Both the position numbers and the translations under genes were made by a program. The notes beneath the pieces were generated by a model. That model had not been told where the DNA came from and made no database searches. It saw nothing but the letters and a program-made list of their open reading frames with translations. 23,592 bases of DNA from Promethearchaeota archaeon. Lineage in GTDB: Archaea; Asgardarchaeota; Lokiarchaeia; Sigyniarchaeales; Promethearchaeaceae. The stretch lies in contig JABCSI010000021.1 of assembly GCA_018238965.1 (NCBI GenBank), positions 1-23,592 of the forward strand, given 5' to 3'. This document shows positions 111-16,956 of the stretch, one piece after another; position 1 is the first letter of the stretch; each line of letters starts with the position of its first letter.

Positions 111-1379
111 ATGTCAAAAATTGAACCCGTAGATATTTCATTTTTCTCTCCATTCAATGAAGAAGCGTGTACTTTATGTGGTGAATGTTTTCATAGATGC
201 CCAATTATGGAATTACCTTTAAAGGAATCCATTGAAGAGATGAAACGGCTCATTGCTGGAAAGCCAACCAAAAAAGTTTTGAAACTATGCCAAAGTTGTT
301 TTTCGTGTAATCTATACTGCCCTGAAAATGCCAATCCTGCAGGTCTTATTCAACAGCGTTGGAATGAACAATATAAAAAAGAGGGTCTCAGAAAAAGGGG
401 CAGATTTTACATGACATTTCATCCCCAATATCCAAATTTTCGTTCTTATGTTATGGAACGTCTCCCTCCTAAAACAAAAGATCTAGTCGCCCAATGGGCA
501 GATCTCTCGCCTCTAAAGGGTGATACCTTGACATACCCTGGTTGCAATATCATAACATATGCTGAGCTCACCCAAACAAGTATATTTAAAGACTTGGAGA
601 TAAGAGGGCGCTTGGAATACTGTTGCGGGGAAACATTGTTCCGGACAGGGTACAAAGATGAGTTATTCCAAGTAACCAAACGATTGAATAACTGGTTCAA
701 CACACTAAAGCCCAAACATCTACTGGTACTCTGTACAGCGGGGACGAATGTGTTTAAAAACGTATTACCTCATTATGGGCTAACGTATAAATTTGAATCT
801 ATCAAATCCTATATCCAATTTATCTGGGAACAAATAGAGGATGGGTCTATCGTAATAAAACATCAATTAGATATGACAGTCACCATCCAAGATTCTTGCT
901 ATTCAAAAATGTTTGGCGATGAATATATGGATTTACCCAGGAAAATACTGAGTGCTATTGGGGTTAAGGTCGTAGAAATTAAAGCCAGTCGTGAGGATAT
1001 GCGGTGTTGCGGGATTGGATGCGGATTTTCAATGGAAGCCGCTTATCATCCATTTCAGATACGGGCAGCAACGGTTAGAAACTTTAAGGAATTTCGAGAA
1101 ACGAAGGCAGATGCGATTTGTGTCTATTGTGCAGGTTGTTTGGCAACATTTACCATCGCCGAGAAGTTGTATATGCGAAATGTAAAGGTGTTTCATATCT
1201 TGGAACTTATACAGATGGCAATTGGAGAAAAACCCATGTCCAAAAAGGCTAAAAAGAAACGGGCCAACACCTTTTTCTGGGGAATCGTCAAAAAACAGTT
1301 TCCGATTACACTTTCTAAAAAGAAATTCAAGATTGCCGACCTTCCTGAAAATCCCCCTCCCTACGGAGATGCATATTGA
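111..1379 (+). CDS. HdrD/GlpC/LutA-like iron-sulfur protein (two ferredoxin-type [4Fe-4S] motifs plus two CCG cysteine-rich modules)
   Basis: 422-aa ORF. N-terminus has two CxxCxxCxxxCP motifs (CTLCGECFHRCP, CQSCFSCNLYCP). Two CCG-type modules follow (YPGC...EYCCGE...LCTAG and DSCYSK...RCCGIGCG...CVYCAGC). A TATA-like 'ctataaat' lies about 30 nt upstream of the ATG. Confidence 0.8.
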   Translation: MSKIEPVDISFFSPFNEEACTLCGECFHRCPIMELPLKESIEEMKRLIAGKPTKKVLKLCQSCFSCNLYCPENANPAGLIQQRWNEQYKKEGLRKRGRFYMTFHPQYPNFRSYVMERLPPKTKDLVAQWADLSPLKGDTLTYPGCNIITYAELTQTSIFKDLEIRGRLEYCCGETLFRTGYKDELFQVTKRLNNWFNTLKPKHLLVLCTAGTNVFKNVLPHYGLTYKFESIKSYIQFIWEQIEDGSIVIKHQLDMTVTIQDSCYSKMFGDEYMDLPRKILSAIGVKVVEIKASREDMRCCGIGCGFSMEAAYHPFQIRAATVRNFKEFRETKADAICVYCAGCLATFTIAEKLYMRNVKVFHILELIQMAIGEKPMSKKAKKKRANTFFWGIVKKQFPITLSKKKFKIADLPENPPPYGDAY

Positions 1380-2749
1380 TTATGGTAGGACCTAAACGAG
1401 TTCTAAGTTTTAGGGAGGATCTTTGCACAGTTTGTGGAGAATGTTTCCATCAATGTCAGGTGATGCATTTACCCCTGGATGTCGCAAAAAAGGAAATGCA
1501 AAAATTAATTGATGGAGTCCAAACCGATTATGTTCTTTCTAATTGTAATACTTGCTTGGCATGCAATTTATCATGTCCTCAACAGGCTAATCCCTATCAG
1601 TTGATTTTGGAAAGGTGGAACGATAAATATAAAAATAGTGGCGCACCTCCCATTTATACATATGTTTGTCCAACCGAAGACGATAACATGTGGCAAATTC
1701 TTAATATTTTCCTCTCAAATCAAGAACAAAGGTGGATATATCGATGGATGCATACGGTTCCTAAACCCGATGATAATGTTCTACTAATTGGGAATTTTAC
1801 GCATCTGTTCCCCTTTATAATTGGAGGGAGTGCCCTATTGGATCATTTTACCCCTCTGGATCGTTTAGATCAATGGGAAGGTGGCGCGTATTTATATCAA
1901 GGAGGATACATGGATGTTGTTCAAAAGATTGCTCGGCGAACCAAGAAAGATTTCGACGGGTGGGGAGTGAAGAATGTTGTCACCCTTTTGGATGCGGTCA
2001 GTTATTTCTGTAATGAAATTCATCCAAGAGAAATGGGTGTAACCCATGATCAAAATTTTACCAATTTTAATACCTGGCTTTTACATAAACTCGATAAGGG
2101 CGAAATTCAATTACCAAATCAACTAGATCTAACTGTAACATTGCATGATAATTGTTATTCCAAAGCATTAGGTGATGTATTATGGAATCCGCCTCGACAA
2201 ATTTTGGAAAAATGTGGTTGTAAAATCATAGAAATGAAACACATCAAGAAGGAATCATTGTGCTGCGGGTTTGGGGCGGGCGCATCATGGGTAAAAAACG
2301 TTTCCATTCCTTTTGATATGATCTACGAATCTTCCAAAAAAATCAAGGAAGCTGAAGAAACCGGGGCGAAAGCTCTCGTTTCGTATTGCGGAGGGTGTGT
2401 TTATCTGCTCTGGGCAACCAGGGAACTACTCCGAAGCAAAATAGATATTTATCATATCGTGGAAGTTGTTCGAATGTCCATGGGTGAGAAATTAGAATAT
2501 CCATCCGTTCACGTTGCCCGGGCGTGGGACATTATTACGCTTTTCACCTATTCGCTCATCCTTTCTCTTGTGAGACGCAACTTCTTTATTTCAAAAATTA
2601 CATATGATAAATCTATGAGTACCTATCAGCCGAAACGATATGGACTTGTAAGAGTTATTCGATATCTATTTAATATTCCAATCATAAGATATGCCTACTC
2701 GAAAATCTTTCAGTTCCTAATTCCCTTTATGAAAACACGTAAGTTCTAA
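1376..2749 (+). CDS. HdrD-like iron-sulfur protein paralog with a degenerate first CCG module and a hydrophobic C-terminal tail
   Basis: 457-aa ORF. The TTG at 1376 overlaps the upstream TGA (TTGA); an alternative ATG lies at 1382. Ferredoxin motifs are CTVCGECFHQC and CNTCLACNLSCP. Only the second CCG module is intact (DNCYSK...LCCGFGAG...SYCGGC). The region aligned to the first CCG of the upstream paralog reads IGNFTH...WEGGAY, with no Cys. The C-terminal ~90 aa are hydrophobic/basic. Confidence 0.75.
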   Translation: MIMVGPKRVLSFREDLCTVCGECFHQCQVMHLPLDVAKKEMQKLIDGVQTDYVLSNCNTCLACNLSCPQQANPYQLILERWNDKYKNSGAPPIYTYVCPTEDDNMWQILNIFLSNQEQRWIYRWMHTVPKPDDNVLLIGNFTHLFPFIIGGSALLDHFTPLDRLDQWEGGAYLYQGGYMDVVQKIARRTKKDFDGWGVKNVVTLLDAVSYFCNEIHPREMGVTHDQNFTNFNTWLLHKLDKGEIQLPNQLDLTVTLHDNCYSKALGDVLWNPPRQILEKCGCKIIEMKHIKKESLCCGFGAGASWVKNVSIPFDMIYESSKKIKEAEETGAKALVSYCGGCVYLLWATRELLRSKIDIYHIVEVVRMSMGEKLEYPSVHVARAWDIITLFTYSLILSLVRRNFFISKITYDKSMSTYQPKRYGLVRVIRYLFNIPIIRYAYSKIFQFLIPFMKTRKF

Positions 2750-9632: not shown

Positions 9633-11924
9633 TTATTCAATTCGATATTCGAACGATTTGGCTAACTTTTTGTAAAGGGGTATGAAATCTTGAAATGAAT
9701 TGATTATATGAAATTGAATATAGTCAAGAAATTCTTCTGGGATAACTGATTGTAAAAGAGTTCCTCCCAAATCTAAAATTTTCATCCGGATATTTCCCTG
9801 TTTGAAGGAAGGGTGCAGGTGTTCATGAAAATCCGCAAAATCGTTCGTAGAACCATCTGTAATAAAAACTATAGAAATCGGGCGATTAGGATCTTCTGCG
9901 TGTATGTAGTCTATCAACTCATTACAATGGATAAGTGAATCTTTAACATTGGTAGATTGGCCACTGATCTCAATTGCATTATGCATCAGGGAAAGGACAT
10001 ATGATTTTAGAATCCCCGAACTCGGAATTGTCGAATCAATCCATGGGTCATTGGCCACAGTCGAAATTAAATGGGTTTTATCCGCAAATGTAAATAAGGA
10101 TGTTCGTTCCCCAATTTTTCGGGATAATTTTTCTAAGATATAAAGGAGGATGAAGAAGGTCGCCACGGTATGTCTCCGAGCATAGATTTCTGGCTTGAAT
10201 TTTAGGAAAGGTGATGGAATATTCAGTTGTTTTAAAAATACTTCCATCTTCTTAAATTCAAAATACTCTTTATCAATCCAAACGTCTTGGGAATTCATCG
10301 ATCGACTAATATCAAGCAGAAAAATCGTATCAAAGATTTCCAATTCCTCAAATTCGATCTCAATCTGGGTCGTTGGTGTCAAATTTCCTATTTCTTGCGG
10401 TCCCAAAGCGGGTTTACAGGATTTAAAAAAGAATTCTGCCTCAAAATCTGGATGTTTAATGGAGATACCTGGATAAATGAAATATTTCATGAAATGGATC
10501 CGGATTACCTCTATTCGACTTTTTATAGTTGAGGCAAGTTTCTCGTGGTTTCCCACATAATCAATGGGAATTTTGGCAAAAACTCTGAATTTTTCGAGGT
10601 TTAGAACTAATTTCTTACGTTTTTGAATAACTAATAAATCCGATTGTCCCAATTGATTATTGATAAGATTTGGATCAATATGGAATTCGTCATCTGGGAT
10701 TTCGTGCGACAATTGGATCTTTGCATACACTGTGAAAGATGAACCCGGTCGTAAAATCGCCGCAATATCCCCTTTGGCAAACCCTAATGCAGTTGCATTC
10801 CGATAATTCAATATTATCCTTCCTTGAATTTCTTCCTTAGGAATGGGTCTCAGTGTGATCTCTTTCACATTAATGATGGGTGGTTCCATGGAATAAATAA
10901 TAATTCGATGGTCGGGTTTTTTAGCGATATCTGATTCAAAAGCAGTCTCTAAATCCATTACAAGGGTATCGTCATCCATTTCTTCGAGTAATACCATGGC
11001 GATCCCATCTCCTCGGGTAATGGGATCTTCCCAAGCAACAAAAGCACCAGGGAAAACATGAAGTTTTTGGGCAAAATTGGGACTGATTACAACACAGCCG
11101 TCCAAATTGTGATTGGAAAGTTTAAAATGTGCAATGTGGGAATCTGGCTTAATTTCAACCAATTCGTAAATATCAATGCTATCGTGGTACTCCGAATCAT
11201 CGAATTCTTCTACAGGAAGTGGTATCGAATCCCTACCATCTGCTGCATCATCTGTTGTCTCCACTAATATGTCCTCGTATTCCGAGGCAATTTCATTAAA
11301 ATCAGGTTTATTTCCGGGGGTCTGCTTGTCTGCCCCTTCGACGATATCGGGTTCAGGTACGAGATCGAAATCATCTGTTATTTCTATTTTTTCAGTTAGT
11401 TCTATATCTTCCGTAATTTCTATATTCTCTGTAATCTCTACATTATCCGTAATTTCTACATTCTTCGAAATTTCAATATCTTCTGTATTGTCTTGTTTAT
11501 CCATGGGATTTTGCTTTATTATTACGGTTTTAAATAAATCTTCATCCTCCGGAGTAGGTATTGGCGCTTTTGCATGGAGAAACTCTCCCAAGAGCTGCGA
11601 TTGACTTTTCAATGAATTTTCATTCAGTTTATATTTCTTATAACCTTCGGAGGGACTCAAAAATTTCGCTCCATTTTCCACGATCACGCCACTACTTATA
11701 GGGAAAGGCATTGACTCAAATAAAATCGGTGTTGCAATTGTTCCTTCCGGTATTTCGGGGTTAATTTTCATCCTAACCGTGAAAAAATGCTTATTTTTTT
11801 TGCTTCCAGCCAAAACTCGGATTATACCACCCTCGGGAAGACCGATTTTGTGAGCGTCAAGATCATTCATTTCGGTCCCGGGAAATTGCTCAAGAATAAA
11901 GGTTGGTTGTACTTGAATCCGCAT
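9633..11924 (-). CDS. Multidomain protein: three cradle-loop/double-psi-barrel-like repeats, acidic hexapeptide tandem repeat, C-terminal vWA domain with complete MIDAS
   Basis: 763-aa ORF. There are three copies of a barrel-type motif (h-x-h-x-P/x-x-x-A-x-x-L/h-G-h-x-x-G-x-h-x-h). They are 'EMNDLDAHKIGLPEGGIIRVLAG' (aa 18-40), 'VVISPNFAQKLHVFPGAFVAWED' (aa 278-300) and 'IILNYRNATALGFAKGDIAAILR' (aa 370-392). Residues ~148-184 are (N/D)(V/I)EIT(E/D) repeats. The vWA motifs are 'FLLDISRSM' (DxSxS), 'SGQSTNVKDSL' (Thr) and 'SIVFITDGSTND' (Asp). Confidence 0.7.
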   Translation of the reverse strand: MRIQVQPTFILEQFPGTEMNDLDAHKIGLPEGGIIRVLAGSKKNKHFFTVRMKINPEIPEGTIATPILFESMPFPISSGVIVENGAKFLSPSEGYKKYKLNENSLKSQSQLLGEFLHAKAPIPTPEDEDLFKTVIIKQNPMDKQDNTEDIEISKNVEITDNVEITENIEITEDIELTEKIEITDDFDLVPEPDIVEGADKQTPGNKPDFNEIASEYEDILVETTDDAADGRDSIPLPVEEFDDSEYHDSIDIYELVEIKPDSHIAHFKLSNHNLDGCVVISPNFAQKLHVFPGAFVAWEDPITRGDGIAMVLLEEMDDDTLVMDLETAFESDIAKKPDHRIIIYSMEPPIINVKEITLRPIPKEEIQGRIILNYRNATALGFAKGDIAAILRPGSSFTVYAKIQLSHEIPDDEFHIDPNLINNQLGQSDLLVIQKRKKLVLNLEKFRVFAKIPIDYVGNHEKLASTIKSRIEVIRIHFMKYFIYPGISIKHPDFEAEFFFKSCKPALGPQEIGNLTPTTQIEIEFEELEIFDTIFLLDISRSMNSQDVWIDKEYFEFKKMEVFLKQLNIPSPFLKFKPEIYARRHTVATFFILLYILEKLSRKIGERTSLFTFADKTHLISTVANDPWIDSTIPSSGILKSYVLSLMHNAIEISGQSTNVKDSLIHCNELIDYIHAEDPNRPISIVFITDGSTNDFADFHEHLHPSFKQGNIRMKILDLGGTLLQSVIPEEFLDYIQFHIINSFQDFIPLYKKLAKSFEYRIE
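9690..10328 (-). other. vWA domain (MIDAS DxSxS...T...D) of the 763-aa protein
   Basis: Covers aa ~533-745. D538-x-S540-x-S542, T658 in GQSTN and D690 in ITDG are present in canonical order and spacing. Confidence 0.7.
11374..11487 (-). repeat. In-frame 18-bp tandem repeat (6 full units plus a partial) encoding (N/D)(V/I)EIT(E/D)
   Basis: Plus-strand units are tctgttatttctattttt / tcagttagttctatatct / tccgtaatttctatattc / tctgtaatctctacatta / tccgtaatttctacattc / ttcgaaatttcaatatct. They translate on the minus strand to DIEISKNVEITDNVEITENIEITEDIELTEKIEITDD. Confidence 0.9.
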
Positions 11925-12019: not shown

Positions 12020-12406
12020 TTAAATTTTTGGATAAGTTTCACTAATTTTACCTGCATAAAATCTGAAAACTGCCACTGTTTTGCCAAGATCACGGATGGT
12101 CCGGGATGCCCCAATAAGGAAAAAGCGTCCGGCCGCAGAAATGACCATAAAACTCTTCTTTCCCCGCAGCACAACCTCAATTAACTTATTAAAGCCGATC
12201 TTTGTGATTGAATCGCTACCACTCTGGAGTAATACTGCTCCCATGGCGCAGAGACTATCAGGATCTACTTGGTAGCCGGGAATTGCCGAGAATGCTAGCC
12301 TCATACCTTCCTTTGAAACGAGCGCTAATGCTTCCAATTCAGTATTTTGTGTGATATTACTCAAATAGGCACTAAGATTCGCAGCATCTTGTTCTTTTAA
12401 TGACAT
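12020..12406 (-). CDS. Roadblock/LC7 (MglB-like) domain protein
   Basis: 128-aa ORF of single-domain size. The pattern 'LEALALVSKEGMRLAFSAIPG..VDPDSLCAMGAVLLQSG...IGFNKLIEVVLRGKKSFMVISAAGRFFLIGASR..DLGK' fits the Robl/LC7 alpha-beta-beta-alpha-beta-beta-beta consensus. A GAGG lies 8 nt upstream of the ATG. Confidence 0.75.
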   Translation of the reverse strand: MSLKEQDAANLSAYLSNITQNTELEALALVSKEGMRLAFSAIPGYQVDPDSLCAMGAVLLQSGSDSITKIGFNKLIEVVLRGKKSFMVISAAGRFFLIGASRTIRDLGKTVAVFRFYAGKISETYPKI

Positions 12407-12462: not shown

Positions 12463-13224
12463 TTAGATTTTTCTTAGGAATTCAATTGCAATTACTACTT
12501 GATTTTTTACCAAGACCCGGGGAACATATCCCTCAGCAAGGAATAAACCTTCTGGGAGAGTTGAGATGGGTTCCAAAATCCGTTCAACGGAAACTTTACC
12601 CAAGAATGGCTGCTTTTTCTCAGTGACAGAATATGATTTATCTCCCACTATCACCATTTCACGTTCGTATCCAGCCGGAACTTCATCTTCATCCAAAAGA
12701 TGGATGATATTATCAAGATTTTCTCGACTTTGGTAATTTTCTGGGGATGATTGGGAAGTTGTCGAATCTCCACCACCTGTATATAACGGTCCTGTCTGTT
12801 CAATGGAGCTATTATACTTGGTGTTCATCAATTGTGCATAGGAAGGCGCATTTTTCATAGGACCCGAAGATGATGGATCTATATCGAATTTAACATCCTC
12901 TCCATCATCTATCACCTCTTTCGCAAATCCATCGGTGGGCATATTTTCGATAGCCTCAAGGAATTCGGGGTCTTTATTGGTATCCTCCTCTTCCAGTGAA
13001 ATAGATCGGTAATTCAGCCCAACTTGGCTTCTAACAGTTTGAGATGTCCGAGCTCCGTTGAATTTCGATCGTACTTTGGCGTTTTGCCCGATCCATAAAT
13101 AGACGACTCGATTGGTATCATCTGATAAAATATAACACTCATTGCTGTCCAATAATTTCTTGATTGGAACTTGATCCTTTAACTCGTGCGCTTCGCCATT
13201 GCCCTTTACAATAAACACTTGCAT
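12463..13224 (-). CDS. Gelsolin/villin-type domain protein with unassigned C-terminal region (1-domain gelsolin + X architecture)
   Basis: 253-aa ORF. The N-terminal ~98 aa are 'MQVFIVKGNGEAHELKD..PIKKLLDSNECYILSDDTNRVVYLWIGQNAKVRSKFNGARTSQTVRSQVG..YRSISLEEEDTNKDPEFLEAI'. They follow the gelsolin-repeat consensus: strand; L/F-x-s-x-d-CYIL; iY-x-W-x-G-x-x-a; long helix; E-x-x-E-x-x-F. A low-complexity S/T/G/N linker and an ~80-aa C-terminal beta-rich region follow. Confidence 0.65.
   Translation of the reverse strand: MQVFIVKGNGEAHELKDQVPIKKLLDSNECYILSDDTNRVVYLWIGQNAKVRSKFNGARTSQTVRSQVGLNYRSISLEEEDTNKDPEFLEAIENMPTDGFAKEVIDDGEDVKFDIDPSSSGPMKNAPSYAQLMNTKYNSSIEQTGPLYTGGGDSTTSQSSPENYQSRENLDNIIHLLDEDEVPAGYEREMVIVGDKSYSVTEKKQPFLGKVSVERILEPISTLPEGLFLAEGYVPRVLVKNQVVIAIEFLRKI
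12931..13224 (-). other. Gelsolin-like domain (aa 1 to about 98)
   Basis: See the motif alignment described for the parent CDS. Confidence 0.6.
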
Positions 13225-13275: not shown

Positions 13276-14928
13276 TTAATTGAAAAAGTTTTTAGTTCTA
13301 AGATAGGGTCGTAACGCGTGTATCAAATCTGTCGCTTGAATTCGGTTGCCATATTTTTCCTTTGCTTCTTCTCCTAAGCGACCATTCAGATAAGTTGCAC
13401 ATATTGTTGCATTAAAGGGAGATACTCCAATAGCAAGAAAGGCTCCGGTCAACCCTGCAAGAATATCGCCAGTTCCTCCCACGGTCATTTCTGGGCATCC
13501 GGTTCGGTTTATTCGTAGATGGTGCGGTTGAAGGTCTTTTCCCTCATTGCCATTACTTCCCTTATTTCCTTCATCTCCCACATTTCCATTATGTTCCTTA
13601 TTCTTGGGTTGTGTGGTGTAATTATTGACAATATAATCATTCTTACCCTTCAAAACACATATTCCCTTAATGTTTTGGAATTTTTCAACTAAAAAGGATG
13701 CCATTTCCCCGTATTCTCCGTTTGGAGGTAATTTTGATATTTGCAGAAGTTGTTTCAGTTCCCCAACGTGTGGCGTGTAGACAATATTCGGGTTTTTGAA
13801 AGAAAATTGTTCTGAATGGATTAAATCGCCCAAGGATTTTAATGCATCGGCATCAATAACACATGGAATGTTTTTTGTGTTTATCCACTTGATGAGATTT
13901 TTGCAAAAAGTTCCCGTTTCATTGGAATTTCCGATACCAGGACCAAGAACTACGGCATCAGCCCTCGAACACAATTCTTGGGCAAGGGGGAGATCTTTTT
14001 CCGTTAAGGTTTCACTTTGACCCTCCCTAACAATTAAATTTGGGCTAAAGGAACGGATTGGAGAAGCAACAGAGGTGGGCACCAGTAAGGATACCAAATC
14101 AATGCCAAACTCTACGGCCGCTAAGGCCGCTAGGGATGGCGCGCCCGAGTATGTTTCGGATCCTCCGATAATTAATAATCTTCCATACTGTCCCTTATGA
14201 TCTTCGGGATTTCTTCGTCTCAAGCCACGACGCAAATCTCCCTTACCCACAAACCACTCCGCCTCAAGTGGGACTCCGATTGGTGCAATTTCAGTATGGA
14301 GAGCGCCGGATAATCCAATTTTTTCACGATGAAAGGTGATTCGAAAATCACATTGAACGGCAACATCCGGAACTGTTCCGGTATCGGGATCCATTCCCGA
14401 GGGAATATCGATAGATGCTTTTGGTATTTTTAGAGAATTGATTAAATTTATGGCGGATTTAATGGGTTCCCGAATTGTCCCCGAAATACCTGTTCCCAAT
14501 AATGCATCGATCGCAAGTGCTGTGGATTGGTTCAGGGAATTTGCCAAAGTGGGAGGGAACAGTGACGAATCGGATAGAATTTTGATTTGGATATTCAAGG
14601 GGAGCCTTGCCAATAGTTTCCAATTCTGTTGCGCTTCCGGAGTCCGAATCTTTGCGGGAATTCCACATAGAAAAACCTGGACTTGATATCCACGGGTGGC
14701 AAGATGGCGCGCAATCACGAAACCATCTCCTCCATTATTCCCTGTTCCACAGAAAATGGCAATCTTACTGCTCTCGGGGAGTGAATATTGCTTTAGGAGA
14801 TGTTCTGTCGCCTGTAATCCGGCGCATTCCATCAGAAGGATTTTTGGAATGCCCAAGCCTTCGGAGTTATCATCTAACCTTCCGATGTCATCTCCCATTA
14901 CGGAGCCCTTAAAAGATTTTAATCGCAT
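13276..14928 (-). CDS. nnr: Bifunctional NAD(P)H-hydrate repair enzyme Nnr (YjeF_N epimerase + ADP/ATP-dependent dehydratase)
   Basis: The N-terminal part has 'FCGTGNNGGDGFVIARHL' (YjeF_N). The C-terminal part has 'HKGQYGRLLIIGGS..YSGAPSLAALAA' and 'GGTGDILAG' (carbohydrate-kinase-like). The track start is TTG 14934. ATG at 14928 is preceded by aaGGAGaatttggaa and is the preferred start. Confidence 0.9.
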   Translation of the reverse strand: MRLKSFKGSVMGDDIGRLDDNSEGLGIPKILLMECAGLQATEHLLKQYSLPESSKIAIFCGTGNNGGDGFVIARHLATRGYQVQVFLCGIPAKIRTPEAQQNWKLLARLPLNIQIKILSDSSLFPPTLANSLNQSTALAIDALLGTGISGTIREPIKSAINLINSLKIPKASIDIPSGMDPDTGTVPDVAVQCDFRITFHREKIGLSGALHTEIAPIGVPLEAEWFVGKGDLRRGLRRRNPEDHKGQYGRLLIIGGSETYSGAPSLAALAAVEFGIDLVSLLVPTSVASPIRSFSPNLIVREGQSETLTEKDLPLAQELCSRADAVVLGPGIGNSNETGTFCKNLIKWINTKNIPCVIDADALKSLGDLIHSEQFSFKNPNIVYTPHVGELKQLLQISKLPPNGEYGEMASFLVEKFQNIKGICVLKGKNDYIVNNYTTQPKNKEHNGNVGDEGNKGSNGNEGKDLQPHHLRINRTGCPEMTVGGTGDILAGLTGAFLAIGVSPFNATICATYLNGRLGEEAKEKYGNRIQATDLIHALRPYLRTKNFFN

Positions 14929-15030
14929 TTCCAAATTCTCCTTATAAAAATAATAGGGAATTCAACTTTTTAATTTTCGCAAATATGCATCAAGGATTCA
15001 AAATTTTTCGGTTCTGAAGAGACTCTCTTA

Positions 15031-15410: not shown

Positions 15411-16160
15411 ATGGACTCTTCAACTCCACCACCATTACGGAAAACCTTCGATGTGTCAATTCAAGCCCATCGGGGATTTAACGCCCAATATCCAGAGAAT
15501 ACACTACTATCTTTTGAAAAAGCAATAGAAGCTAAGGCGGATTATATTGAATTGGATGTTCGTGCCTCATCGGATAATCATGTTGTCGTTATGCATGATC
15601 TTGACACAGAGCGAGTAGCTGTAGATTCTCAACCCCTAATCATCGCGGATTCGACTTTGGAACAGATAAAGAGTATACAATTACCCGAAAATCAAAAAGT
15701 CCCTACCTTACGGGAAGTTTGTAAACTATGCCAAGGGAAAATAGGTTTGAACATTGAAATCACGCAATTGGGAATAACTTCTCTTGTCAATGATATCGTT
15801 CATGAATTCGGTATGGAAAAAGATGTAATGATTTCGAGTTTTCTTCATGGAGAATTGGGACTCATGCACAAATTAAATCCTTTGCTTATGTGTGCAACAC
15901 TTGAAGCCAAAGGCGGTCGTGTTAAAGGTTACATCAAGAAATCTCTCAAAGTCAATGCTTGTGGTTTAAATCCTCACCACACTGATTTTTCTCCTTCATT
16001 ATGCACACAGGCCCATGAAAATGGTTTATATTTCCATCCATGGACTGTCAATGATCCTAAGATCTGGGATGAGATGGTAGCTGCAGGAGTGGATGGAATC
16101 ATTACCGATAACCCCCAAGCCCTATATGATTACCTTCAAGATAAGGCTGTAAATTCGTAG
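15411..16160 (+). CDS. Glycerophosphodiester phosphodiesterase (GDPD family), copy 1
   Basis: 249-aa ORF with 'HRGFNAQYPENTLLSFEKAIEAKADYIELDVRASSDNHVVVMHD', matching the canonical HRG...PENT...E-x-D-V...HD motifs. The later metal-ligand motif reads 'LNIEIT'. 'HPWTVND' is near the C-terminus. Confidence 0.85.
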   Translation: MDSSTPPPLRKTFDVSIQAHRGFNAQYPENTLLSFEKAIEAKADYIELDVRASSDNHVVVMHDLDTERVAVDSQPLIIADSTLEQIKSIQLPENQKVPTLREVCKLCQGKIGLNIEITQLGITSLVNDIVHEFGMEKDVMISSFLHGELGLMHKLNPLLMCATLEAKGGRVKGYIKKSLKVNACGLNPHHTDFSPSLCTQAHENGLYFHPWTVNDPKIWDEMVAAGVDGIITDNPQALYDYLQDKAVNS

Positions 16161-16206: not shown

Positions 16207-16956
16207 ATGAAACAAACATTTGGGGTTTCTATTCATGCTCACCGTGGATTTAGCGCCAAATATCCTGAGAATACATTACTTGCCTTTGAAAAAGCAATAG
16301 AAGCCAAGGCGGATTACATTGAATTGGACGTGCATGCCTCATCGGATCACCATGTTGTTGTTATTCACGATCGGACAACAATACGAGTATCATCCCAAAA
16401 ACTTAATGTTGAAAAATCGACCTTGGAGCAAATTCAAGGCATTAAATTGAAGGGAGATCAAAAAATACCCACGTTACGGGAAGTTTGCAGACTGTGCAAA
16501 GGGAGAATCGGCATAAATATAGAAATTAAGCAAAAAGGTATAACTTCTCTTATCAATGATATCGTTCATGAATTTGGAATGGAAGAAGAGGTGATGATTT
16601 CGAGTTTTCTTCATGCGGAATTGCAAATCATGCATAAATTAAATCCATCGCTCACGATTGCTGCCCTCGAACCCAATGGCGAGAGTATTATCAAGAACAT
16701 TCTTAACGCTTTTCGTAAAGGAAAATTTATTGATAACGCTCTCTCAATCGAAGCCCAAGGGATTAATCCCCATCATCTATTCATTACGCCTTCATTGTTG
16801 TCCCGTGCTCATAAGAATGCTCTATCTATCAATCCATGGACCATTGATGATCCAAAAATGTGGGATAAGTTAGTGGCCATTGGAGTGGATAGCATCATAA
16901 CCAATAATCCGGAAGCACTCTACAAATATCTTAAAGAAAGAGCCGCAAATTCTTAG
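16207..16956 (+). CDS. Glycerophosphodiester phosphodiesterase (GDPD family), copy 2 (tandem paralog)
   Basis: 249-aa ORF with 'HRGFSAKYPENTLLAFEKAIEAKADYIELDVHASSDHHVVVIHD', 'INIEIK' and 'NPWTIDD'. By eye, roughly two-thirds of aligned residues are identical to copy 1. Confidence 0.85.
   Translation: MKQTFGVSIHAHRGFSAKYPENTLLAFEKAIEAKADYIELDVHASSDHHVVVIHDRTTIRVSSQKLNVEKSTLEQIQGIKLKGDQKIPTLREVCRLCKGRIGINIEIKQKGITSLINDIVHEFGMEEEVMISSFLHAELQIMHKLNPSLTIAALEPNGESIIKNILNAFRKGKFIDNALSIEAQGINPHHLFITPSLLSRAHKNALSINPWTIDDPKMWDKLVAIGVDSIITNNPEALYKYLKERAANS

Follow-up and report, generated by a model that had tools for sequence, protein, structure and literature searches.

Three classes of Asgard gelsolin-like proteins, ProGel, 1DGelX and 2DGel, were defined by Akil et al. 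2020 (PMC7444086). Bare ProGel from Thorarchaeota (Thor) scarcely binds actin, and Thor 1DGelX binds rabbit actin with a dissociation constant (Kd) of 7.7 uM and, with no need for Ca2+, nucleates, severs and bundles filaments (PMC7444086). The C-terminal extension of 1DGelX was proposed to be a filament side-binder; the Thor domain X could be neither expressed nor crystallised and was represented by an I-TASSER coiled-coil model (PMC7444086). Two 1DGelX proteins were later counted in the cultured strain MK-D1 (Akil et al. 2022; PMC9433394), and a December 2025 preprint on Lokiarchaeum ossiferum (bioRxiv 10.1101/2025.11.30.690169) listed five proteins with gelsolin homology that were enriched by co-immunoprecipitation (co-IP) with Lokiactin and described one protein, B35_Gel1, as a single gelsolin-homology domain plus a disordered region. 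Here, we describe a gene of related layout on contig JABCSI010000021.1 of a Promethearchaeota archaeon, within an analysed stretch of 23,592 nucleotides (nt; the window). An earlier note, made from the DNA alone, had read positions 12463-13224 as a single gelsolin domain fused to an unassigned C-terminal module, and had stated that an Asgard architecture of this kind was already described, as indeed it is in the form of 1DGelX (PMC7444086). The encoded protein, here called GelX, is very probably a Lokiarchaeia-type Asgard actin regulator consisting of a single gelsolin domain and an extension, and the extension is predicted to fold into a module of its own, X.

Gelsolin domain, linker and module X

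The gene and its parts are as follows, with the evidence for each in brackets. Structural features were taken from AlphaFold2 (AF2) models and their predicted local distance difference test (pLDDT) scores.

12463..13224, minus strand: the Gel-linker-X gene, ATG start, 253 amino acids, stop codon included (open reading frame listing and translation)
12931..13224, minus strand: gelsolin-homology domain, residues 1-98 (PDB sequence matches, AF2 and Foldseek)
12913..12930, minus strand: motif G99-[F/I]-A101-K-E103-[I/V]104, directly after the gelsolin domain, in the WH2-like (LKKV-type) position
12727..12912, minus strand: disordered, acidic, polar linker, residues 105-166 (pLDDT and composition)
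12775..12792, minus strand: GPLYTG motif, G145-G150, within the linker (conservation in 40 sequences)
12466..12726, minus strand: module X, residues 167-253, ~87 amino acids (AF2 full-length and X-only models)

The reading frame is a real gene, and the protein sequence given in the earlier note, which had left the strand unstated, was correct. Its ATG start is backed by an invariant Q2 and by the aligned N-termini of homologs, and translation of the plus strand of 12463-13224 revealed stops throughout. At E<=1e-3, 233 homologs were recovered, the best 120 of which match almost all at near full length; near-full-length homologs share 37-94% identity with the 253-amino-acid protein, and the top homolog (94%) comes from a Promethearchaeota metagenome-assembled genome (MAG). 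With these 233 homologs and with 134 confirmed loci in a scan of species-representative genomes, a chance reading frame can be dismissed. The surroundings have the low GC content (35-45%) of an ordinary archaeal chromosome, with metabolic genes nearby.

Residues 1-98 are a genuine member of the gelsolin-homology (gelsolin/cofilin) superfamily. When the single sequence was searched against the PDB with phmmer, the Loki 2DGel (7whg_G) was recovered at E=3.1e-8 and the gelsolins of horse and man at ~1e-4, and a 40-member family profile matched the Loki 2DGel at 4.5e-11, Thor 2DGel3 at 3e-7, Thor ProGel at 2.4e-5 and villin at 1.3e-4. The profile comparison that the earlier note had proposed for this region therefore yields significant gelsolin matches in the PDB searches, and the curated Pfam cut-off alone is missed. 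The AF2 model built from the family alignment has pLDDT >90 across residues 1-100 and places strands at 2-6, 12-15, 30-35 and 40-45, a long helix at 51-68, a strand at 73-78 and a helix at 79-91, which is the order of strands and long helix expected of the gelsolin fold. All 33 Foldseek matches at E<=1e-3 are gelsolin-type, the best being Thor ProGel (7C2F; TMt 0.85, root-mean-square deviation 1.8 A). The W-x-G signature, a gelsolin-domain motif defined in PMC9433394, is present as W44-I-G46, with G46 invariant and W44 at least 90% conserved among 40 homologs. Within the domain, conservation peaks in the long helix (51-69), with a mean pairwise identity of 0.80 versus 0.53 over the whole gelsolin domain, as would fit a canonical actin-binding helix. 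The family profile matches one gelsolin region only, whereas Ca2+-regulated gelsolins have two or more repeats.

In this domain, other residues stand in place of the canonical Ca2+ ligands. At the type I and type II sites, as defined in PMC9433394, the acidic ligands are replaced by Arg, Ser and Arg. In the HMMER alignments, 'SVDEK' of Loki D1 and 'TVDEKF' of Thor 2DGel3 are paired with 'KVRSKF', so that the D-E pair becomes R52-S53 (R52 invariant, S53 at least 90% conserved among homologs), and Loki 'TLDQQRGG' is paired with 'TVRSQVG', in which the Asp after the helix becomes R65, also invariant. The ligand residues are assigned by reference to that definition and to human G1. With Arg, Ser and Arg at these sites, the gelsolin domain is unlikely to be regulated by Ca2+, as with Thor ProGel and 1DGelX (PMC7444086), and the protein as a whole probably acts independently of Ca2+.

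Directly after the gelsolin domain, the motif G[F/I]AKE[I/V] is nearly invariant (G99, A101 and I/V104 in 40/40 sequences, E103 in 38/40), and HMMER pairs 'EGILKKVQ' of Thor 2DGel3 with the family's 'eGfAkeik'. Relative to the gelsolin pattern L-[KR]-[KR]-[TV], the family has Ala in place of Leu and Glu in place of the second basic residue; the Loki 2DGel version, LVDV, likewise has an acidic residue at the third position (PMC9433394). In crystal structures of 2DGel bound to actin, the WH2-like motif runs along the actin surface (PMC9433394), and we read G[F/I]AKE[I/V] as the putative positional counterpart of this element.

The linker that follows is low in complexity, as the earlier note had seen, with S/T/G/N/Q/P making up 56% of residues 105-166. 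Its pLDDT falls below 50 at 109-128 and 133-160, its length varies across homologs and its pairwise identity is 0.13-0.22. Embedded in it, GPLYTG has the highest pairwise identity of any stretch in the protein (0.90), with P146 in 40/40 sequences, G145 and Y148 in 39/40 and G150 in 38/40. Conservation of this kind suggests that GPLYTG is probably a short linear binding motif; in the predicted structure it docks on neither the gelsolin domain nor X.

X is predicted to be a folded, Asgard-specific alpha + beta module, distinct in kind from a gelsolin repeat. In AF2, a helix (167-179) is followed by five antiparallel strands (186-193, 196-207, 210-219, 233-240 and 243-252), with pLDDT ~90 in the full-length model and, for X alone, pLDDT 88 and a predicted template-modelling score (pTM) of 0.76. 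Because the helix and five strands are predicted at pLDDT ~90, X should be neither disordered nor a coiled coil; the coiled-coil structure published for the Thor 1DGelX extension is ruled out here by the same predicted elements. Mean pairwise identity is 0.65 in the beta core and 0.75 in the loop at 221-236, the core thus being more conserved across homologs than the gelsolin domain (0.53). The loop segment P224-E-G-x-F-x-A-x-x-Y-x-P-R236 is invariant, and 20 positions of X are invariant across 23 diverse sequences.

As the earlier note had supposed, X has no assigned family, and no known unrelated domain was matched in Pfam, among PDB sequences or folds, or in BFVD. The window fragment has 0 Pfam matches at E<=10, with scattered single matches over 23 members of the family, and NCBIfam gave no match. 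The only match of the X profile among PDB sequences was a chance one to the leucine-rich repeat (LRR) string 'SLPEGVF' (E=0.05); kinship with LRR proteins was rejected, the matches of this string to repebodies and VLR (E=0.05-2) being an 11-residue coincidence. Foldseek with X alone returned a best E of 0.38 against the PDB, with all listed template-modelling (TM) scores <0.4 and no gelsolin, cofilin or ADF-H fold among the 50 matches listed, and a best E of 0.18 with TM <0.4 against BFVD. The absence of a known fold is thus stated relative to Pfam, NCBIfam, PDB and BFVD only.

Distribution and gene neighbourhoods

Module X is restricted to Asgard archaea and almost always shares its protein with a gelsolin domain. 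Searched against 1.84 billion representative proteins, the X profile matched 194 clusters at E<=1e-3, and every named homolog belongs to Promethearchaeota or another Asgard lineage. Cultured or complete Lokiarchaeia genomes among the species-representative loci include Promethearchaeum syntrophicum MK-D1, L. ossiferum and Harpocratesius repetitus, and named members also occur in Helarchaeota, Heimdallarchaeota AB_125, Hodarchaeum mangrovi and Sigynarchaeum. A gelsolin domain is also present in 210 of the 267 X-bearing proteins retrieved; the other 57 are mostly fragments of <170 amino acids or N-terminally truncated gene calls. Two X-bearing loci are labelled as non-Asgard (Bathyarchaeota and Nanopelagicaceae), labels that are probably binning errors. 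In recent MAG series (L038, L071, L081), proteins that share 76-85% identity with that of L071 are variously labelled Thor, Odin, Hod and Hermod, as are proteins 80% identical among themselves, and the phylum labels of several such series look unreliable for gauging taxonomic spread.

The architecture varies around this core. For example, some proteins carry a gelsolin domain and two tandem X modules (P0167, P0205), and a Helarchaeota protein (P0201) has a coiled coil of ~230 amino acids after X. The bigger subgroups end in short tails, 'KKxILKDQIKxQLG' or 'LKxHLxK..DLxxxFG', neither of which is present in the window protein. In alignment columns 345-393, the tails after X read 'KKxILKDQIKxQLG' in P0054-P0120 and 'KLKxxSKDPKxLAKxFGM' in P0041-P0053, and the segment 'ILKDQ' is similar to 'LKDV', an Asgard WH2-like motif mentioned in the 2025 L. 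ossiferum preprint. In L075:5677-6504 and P0238, X is followed in turn by a poly-Asp stretch, 'YPYIF..PP' and a Zn-ribbon tail, 'CQYCG...HSCKKKP', and in P0238 a gelsolin domain comes after X; these layouts may either be genuine variants of the architecture or result from fused gene calls.

In the window, GelX lies within a run of genes on one strand, in the order Nnr, GelX, Roadblock and VWA protein. A second neighbourhood, given last below, occurs in Heimdall-type relatives and Hodarchaeum mangrovi.

13276..14934, minus strand: Nnr, bifunctional NAD(P)H-hydrate repair enzyme, YjeF_N + Carb_kinase, upstream of GelX (Pfam E=3.5e-48 and 2.1e-42)
12020..12406, minus strand: Roadblock/LC7 protein, 128 amino acids, downstream (Pfam Robl_LC7 23.5 bits, cut-off 23; PDB 7f8m, E=5e-4)
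9633..11924, minus strand: 763-amino-acid protein, second downstream neighbour, with orthologs that carry a C-terminal VWA domain
L085:6001-8502, L089:5001-7486, L090:5001-7816 and L091:5001-7285, each on the same strand throughout: GelX followed by Ras (173-202 amino acids) and Arf-like (241-250 amino acids) genes

The gaps between the four window genes are 51, 56 and 95 nt, each of them AT-rich with TATA-like runs. The arrangement was surveyed by tblastn over 80 species-level loci, in which GelX identity is 36-75%. Roadblock lies at most 1.5 kb downstream of GelX in 68/73 loci of sufficient extent (on the same strand in 66), the VWA protein comes next in 52/58 Loki-type loci, and Nnr precedes GelX on the same strand in 54/58. 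Across loci, Roadblock has a higher median identity than GelX (57% vs 39%). The VWA assignment derives from Pfam matches in the L. ossiferum ortholog and from precomputed annotations of orthologs; the window copy of the 763-amino-acid protein gave no significant Pfam VWA match, only a weak N-terminal match to Molydop_binding. An acidic tandem repeat, 'NVEITDNVEITENIEITEDIELTEKIEITDD', also occurs in this protein, where L. ossiferum has a 'PMQTPQVP' repeat instead, and a faint CDC48_N match is on record for its ortholog in L002.

In the Heimdall-type relatives and Hodarchaeum mangrovi, the gene immediately after GelX, on the same strand, encodes a small GTPase of the Ras family (Pfam Ras, 174 bits), and the next an Arf-like protein; the four loci span 39% identity and have different flanks. 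The AB_125-type, Hel-type and two-X-type proteins and a paralog with a Pro/Ala linker have neither neighbourhood. No paper describing the Roadblock/VWA or the Ras/Arf neighbourhoods of GelX was found in the literature.

Co-variation among the neighbours was assessed by mirror-tree comparison with partial Mantel tests over 42 syntenic loci, controlled for Nnr. With log-corrected distances, the top partial correlation is between X and Roadblock (r = 0.55), and in a rank-based version with quadratic controls the values are 0.55 for X and VWA, 0.49 for the gelsolin domain and Roadblock and 0.44 for X and Roadblock.

The syntenic ortholog in L. ossiferum (L007:5491-6270) encodes 259 amino acids, is 59% identical over its full length and has the Nnr-GelX-Roadblock-VWA context. 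The computed masses of its Nnr, GelX and VWA reading frames (56.24, 29.21 and 82.84 kDa) match those tabulated for GNAMCCOK_04217, 04218 and 04220 (56.2, 29.19 and 82.79 kDa), and the locus is therefore identified as that of B35_Gel1 (GNAMCCOK_04218, UYP47899.1). B35_Gel1 is expressed, and in the preprint's co-IP data it is enriched with Lokiactin at a log2 fold change of 2.08 (adjusted p 0.025; bioRxiv 10.1101/2025.11.30.690169). The Nnr ortholog GNAMCCOK_04217 is enriched in the same co-IP (log2 fold change 1.66, adjusted p 0.015), which may be incidental.

Elsewhere in the window, two glycerophosphodiester phosphodiesterase (GDPD) paralogs of 249 amino acids each lie in tandem on the plus strand (15411-16160 and 16207-16956), and an adjacent pair of HdrD/GlpC-like paralogs with 4Fe-4S dicluster and CCG cysteine-rich domains, their ends overlapping by 4 nt, occupies 111-2749 (plus strand).

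Possible roles of module X

The explanation that we favour, and to which we assign as a whole a probability of about one half, is that GelX is an actin regulator built from a gelsolin domain, a tether and X as a second attachment point. The gelsolin domain and the putative WH2-like motif would engage a single actin subunit at its barbed-face cleft, Ca2+ not being required, with G[F/I]AKE[I/V] running up the actin face as the LKKV motif of 2DGels does, and X, on a leash of 60-250 residues, would supply a second, non-gelsolin site, by which a protein that binds monomers weakly could become a factor directed to filaments. High conservation of the X core and loop (0.65 and 0.75) and of the long helix (0.80), together with a free linker, fits two binding modules on a tether. 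As for what X attaches to, the leading candidate, though below even odds, is the side of the actin filament or a second actin, in keeping with the role proposed for the extension of Thor 1DGelX, which severs F-actin independently of Ca2+ whereas bare ProGel scarcely binds (PMC7444086); such a role would explain why X is conserved to a degree comparable with the actin-binding helix and why it is duplicated in some variants.

Several observations weigh against this explanation. The function of X is inferred entirely, and the biochemistry of 1DGelX is carried over to the GelX family through domain layout. The preprint groups B35_Gel1 apart from B35_GelX/Thor_GelX (bioRxiv 10.1101/2025.11.30.690169). 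Scores for Pfam Gelsolin (PF00626) are 13.9-15.8 bits, under the 21-bit cut-off, which is why the family is listed in databases as 'hypothetical' without a Pfam domain, and E29 might still supply one carboxylate to a Ca2+ site. X, the gelsolin domain, Roadblock and VWA co-vary beyond what Nnr accounts for, with a pair ranking that depends on the method and singles out no partner. In L. ossiferum proteomics, the log2 abundances are 19.8 for the GelX ortholog, 15.7 for Roadblock and 16.9 for VWA, and in the actin co-IP the VWA protein is not enriched. An obligate stoichiometric GelX-Roadblock-VWA complex is disfavoured by these abundance and co-IP values.

The neighbourhoods invite another account, in which X serves as an adaptor by which the gelsolin domain docks onto a Roadblock dimer (Loki) or onto Ras/Arf-like GTPases (Heimdall/Hod), so that the state of the GTPase would recruit or switch severing or capping and X itself would not touch actin. 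We regard this as on the doubtful side, but nearly as likely as attachment of X to actin. Roadblock proteins form dimers that regulate small GTPases and serve as platforms for GTPase-activating proteins (GAPs) and guanine nucleotide exchange factors (GEFs) (PMC10933270), and the two lineage-specific neighbourhoods are each composed of GTPase-signalling parts, with Roadblock in 68/73 loci in one and Ras and Arf-like genes at all four listed loci in the other. An Arf GTPase also co-purified with Lokiactin in L. ossiferum (bioRxiv 10.1101/2025.11.30.690169), and the distance correlations among X, the gelsolin domain, Roadblock and VWA persist after control for Nnr, although their ranking shifts with the method. 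However, Roadblock is ~17-fold scarcer than the GelX ortholog by log2 intensity and is not among the co-IP table entries covered here, each window gene has its own AT-rich, TATA-like upstream stretch, and a paralogous Gel-X subfamily (L013, L015, L016) as well as the Hel and AB_125-type proteins keep X in the absence of these neighbours.

Self-association of X, which would make the protein bivalent for actin and lead it to bundle or crosslink filaments instead of severing them, seems quite improbable. In its favour, X is predicted to be an elongated five-stranded meander, with strands of 8-12 residues, one covering helix and hydrophobic residues on both faces, and its Foldseek TM scores against compact domains are very low; in addition, Thor 1DGelX and ProGel bundle filaments in TIRF (total internal reflection fluorescence) assays (PMC7444086), and the Helarchaeota variant continues from X into a long coiled coil. 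Nevertheless, the monomer model (pTM 0.76) suggests a self-contained fold, and the tandem modules of P0167 and P0205 would be superfluous if X dimerised. Following the earlier note's suggestion of a half-gelsolin repeat, X could be read as a degenerate second repeat or half of one and the protein as a cryptic 2DGel intermediate, but this is extremely improbable. The idea started from a by-eye alignment of short hydrophobic strands only, and gelsolin evolution through domain duplication is well established (PMC7444086), but the internal echo it saw between the two halves disappears on comparison, with no BLASTP match at E<=100 and an hhalign probability of 0.2% over 7 columns for X against the gelsolin profile. 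The predicted order of elements, an alpha helix followed by five beta strands, also differs from the gelsolin order of four beta strands, long alpha, beta and alpha, and the Foldseek search with X (best E=0.38) lists no gelsolin, cofilin or ADF-H fold among its 50 matches, whereas the N-terminal domain finds dozens. The structure prediction that the earlier note had called for thus speaks against its own half-repeat, and its remark that X lacks the long helix is accurate in part, X having a 13-residue N-terminal helix of its own (167-179).

Weighed in this way, two binding modules on a tether remains the reading we prefer. It is unlikely that X is a new Asgard-specific fold physically coupling a gelsolin-type actin regulator to small-GTPase signalling, through Roadblock in Loki and Ras/Arf in Heimdall and Hod. 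A GTPase-coupled GelX would be a pre-eukaryotic precursor of GTPase-controlled actin remodelling, and a connection from gelsolin-type regulators to small GTPases would give the first indication that Rho/Arf-style control of actin predates eukaryotes; if X only binds actin, the result would still be a useful refinement of the 1DGelX class. In either case, the GelX family is among the few actin-associated proteins in cultured Lokiarchaeum, and X, a domain that nobody has characterised, exceeds its other parts in conservation, the actin-binding helix excepted. As a discrete, expressible module of 87 amino acids that is predicted to be folded and has invariant surface residues, X would make its function directly testable.

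Comparison with described gelsolin-type proteins

The type of protein is already known, and experiments have associated an ortholog with actin. The folded X module, the linker motifs, the Nnr-GelX-Roadblock-VWA gene order and the Ras/Arf neighbourhood are apparently undescribed so far; for example, the preprint that presents B35_Gel1 contains no report of a folded C-terminal module, linker motifs or conserved neighbours.

Like GelX, 1DGelX (Thorarchaeota SMTZ1-83, KXH72031.1) has an N-terminal gelsolin domain and a non-gelsolin C-terminal extension and is found only in Asgard archaea. This match is one of domain layout, and the X regions as described differ: the Thor X was modelled as a coiled coil, whereas that of GelX is a predicted helix and five-strand beta module. 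The MK-D1 ortholog DSAG12_01764 (P0026) fits the 1DGelX description and is a candidate for one of the two such proteins counted in that strain.

ProGel (Thor, 7C2F) is the best fold match and, like GelX, has no acidic 'D-E' ligands where the helix begins. In contrast to GelX, which adds the putative WH2-like motif, the tether and X, it is a bare domain of ~90 amino acids. Among the 2DGels (Loki 7WHG, Thor 7C2G/7C2H), the Loki protein is the best sequence match of the GelX gelsolin domain, and 2DGel, gelsolin and villin share with GelX the W-x-G signature, and their WH2-like motif occupies, immediately behind domain 1, the same position as G[F/I]AKE[I/V]. GelX differs from all of them in having one gelsolin domain, an unrelated X and replaced Ca2+ residues, and in reading AKE[I/V] at the WH2-like position where 2DGel, gelsolin and villin have LKKV, LRRV or LVDV.

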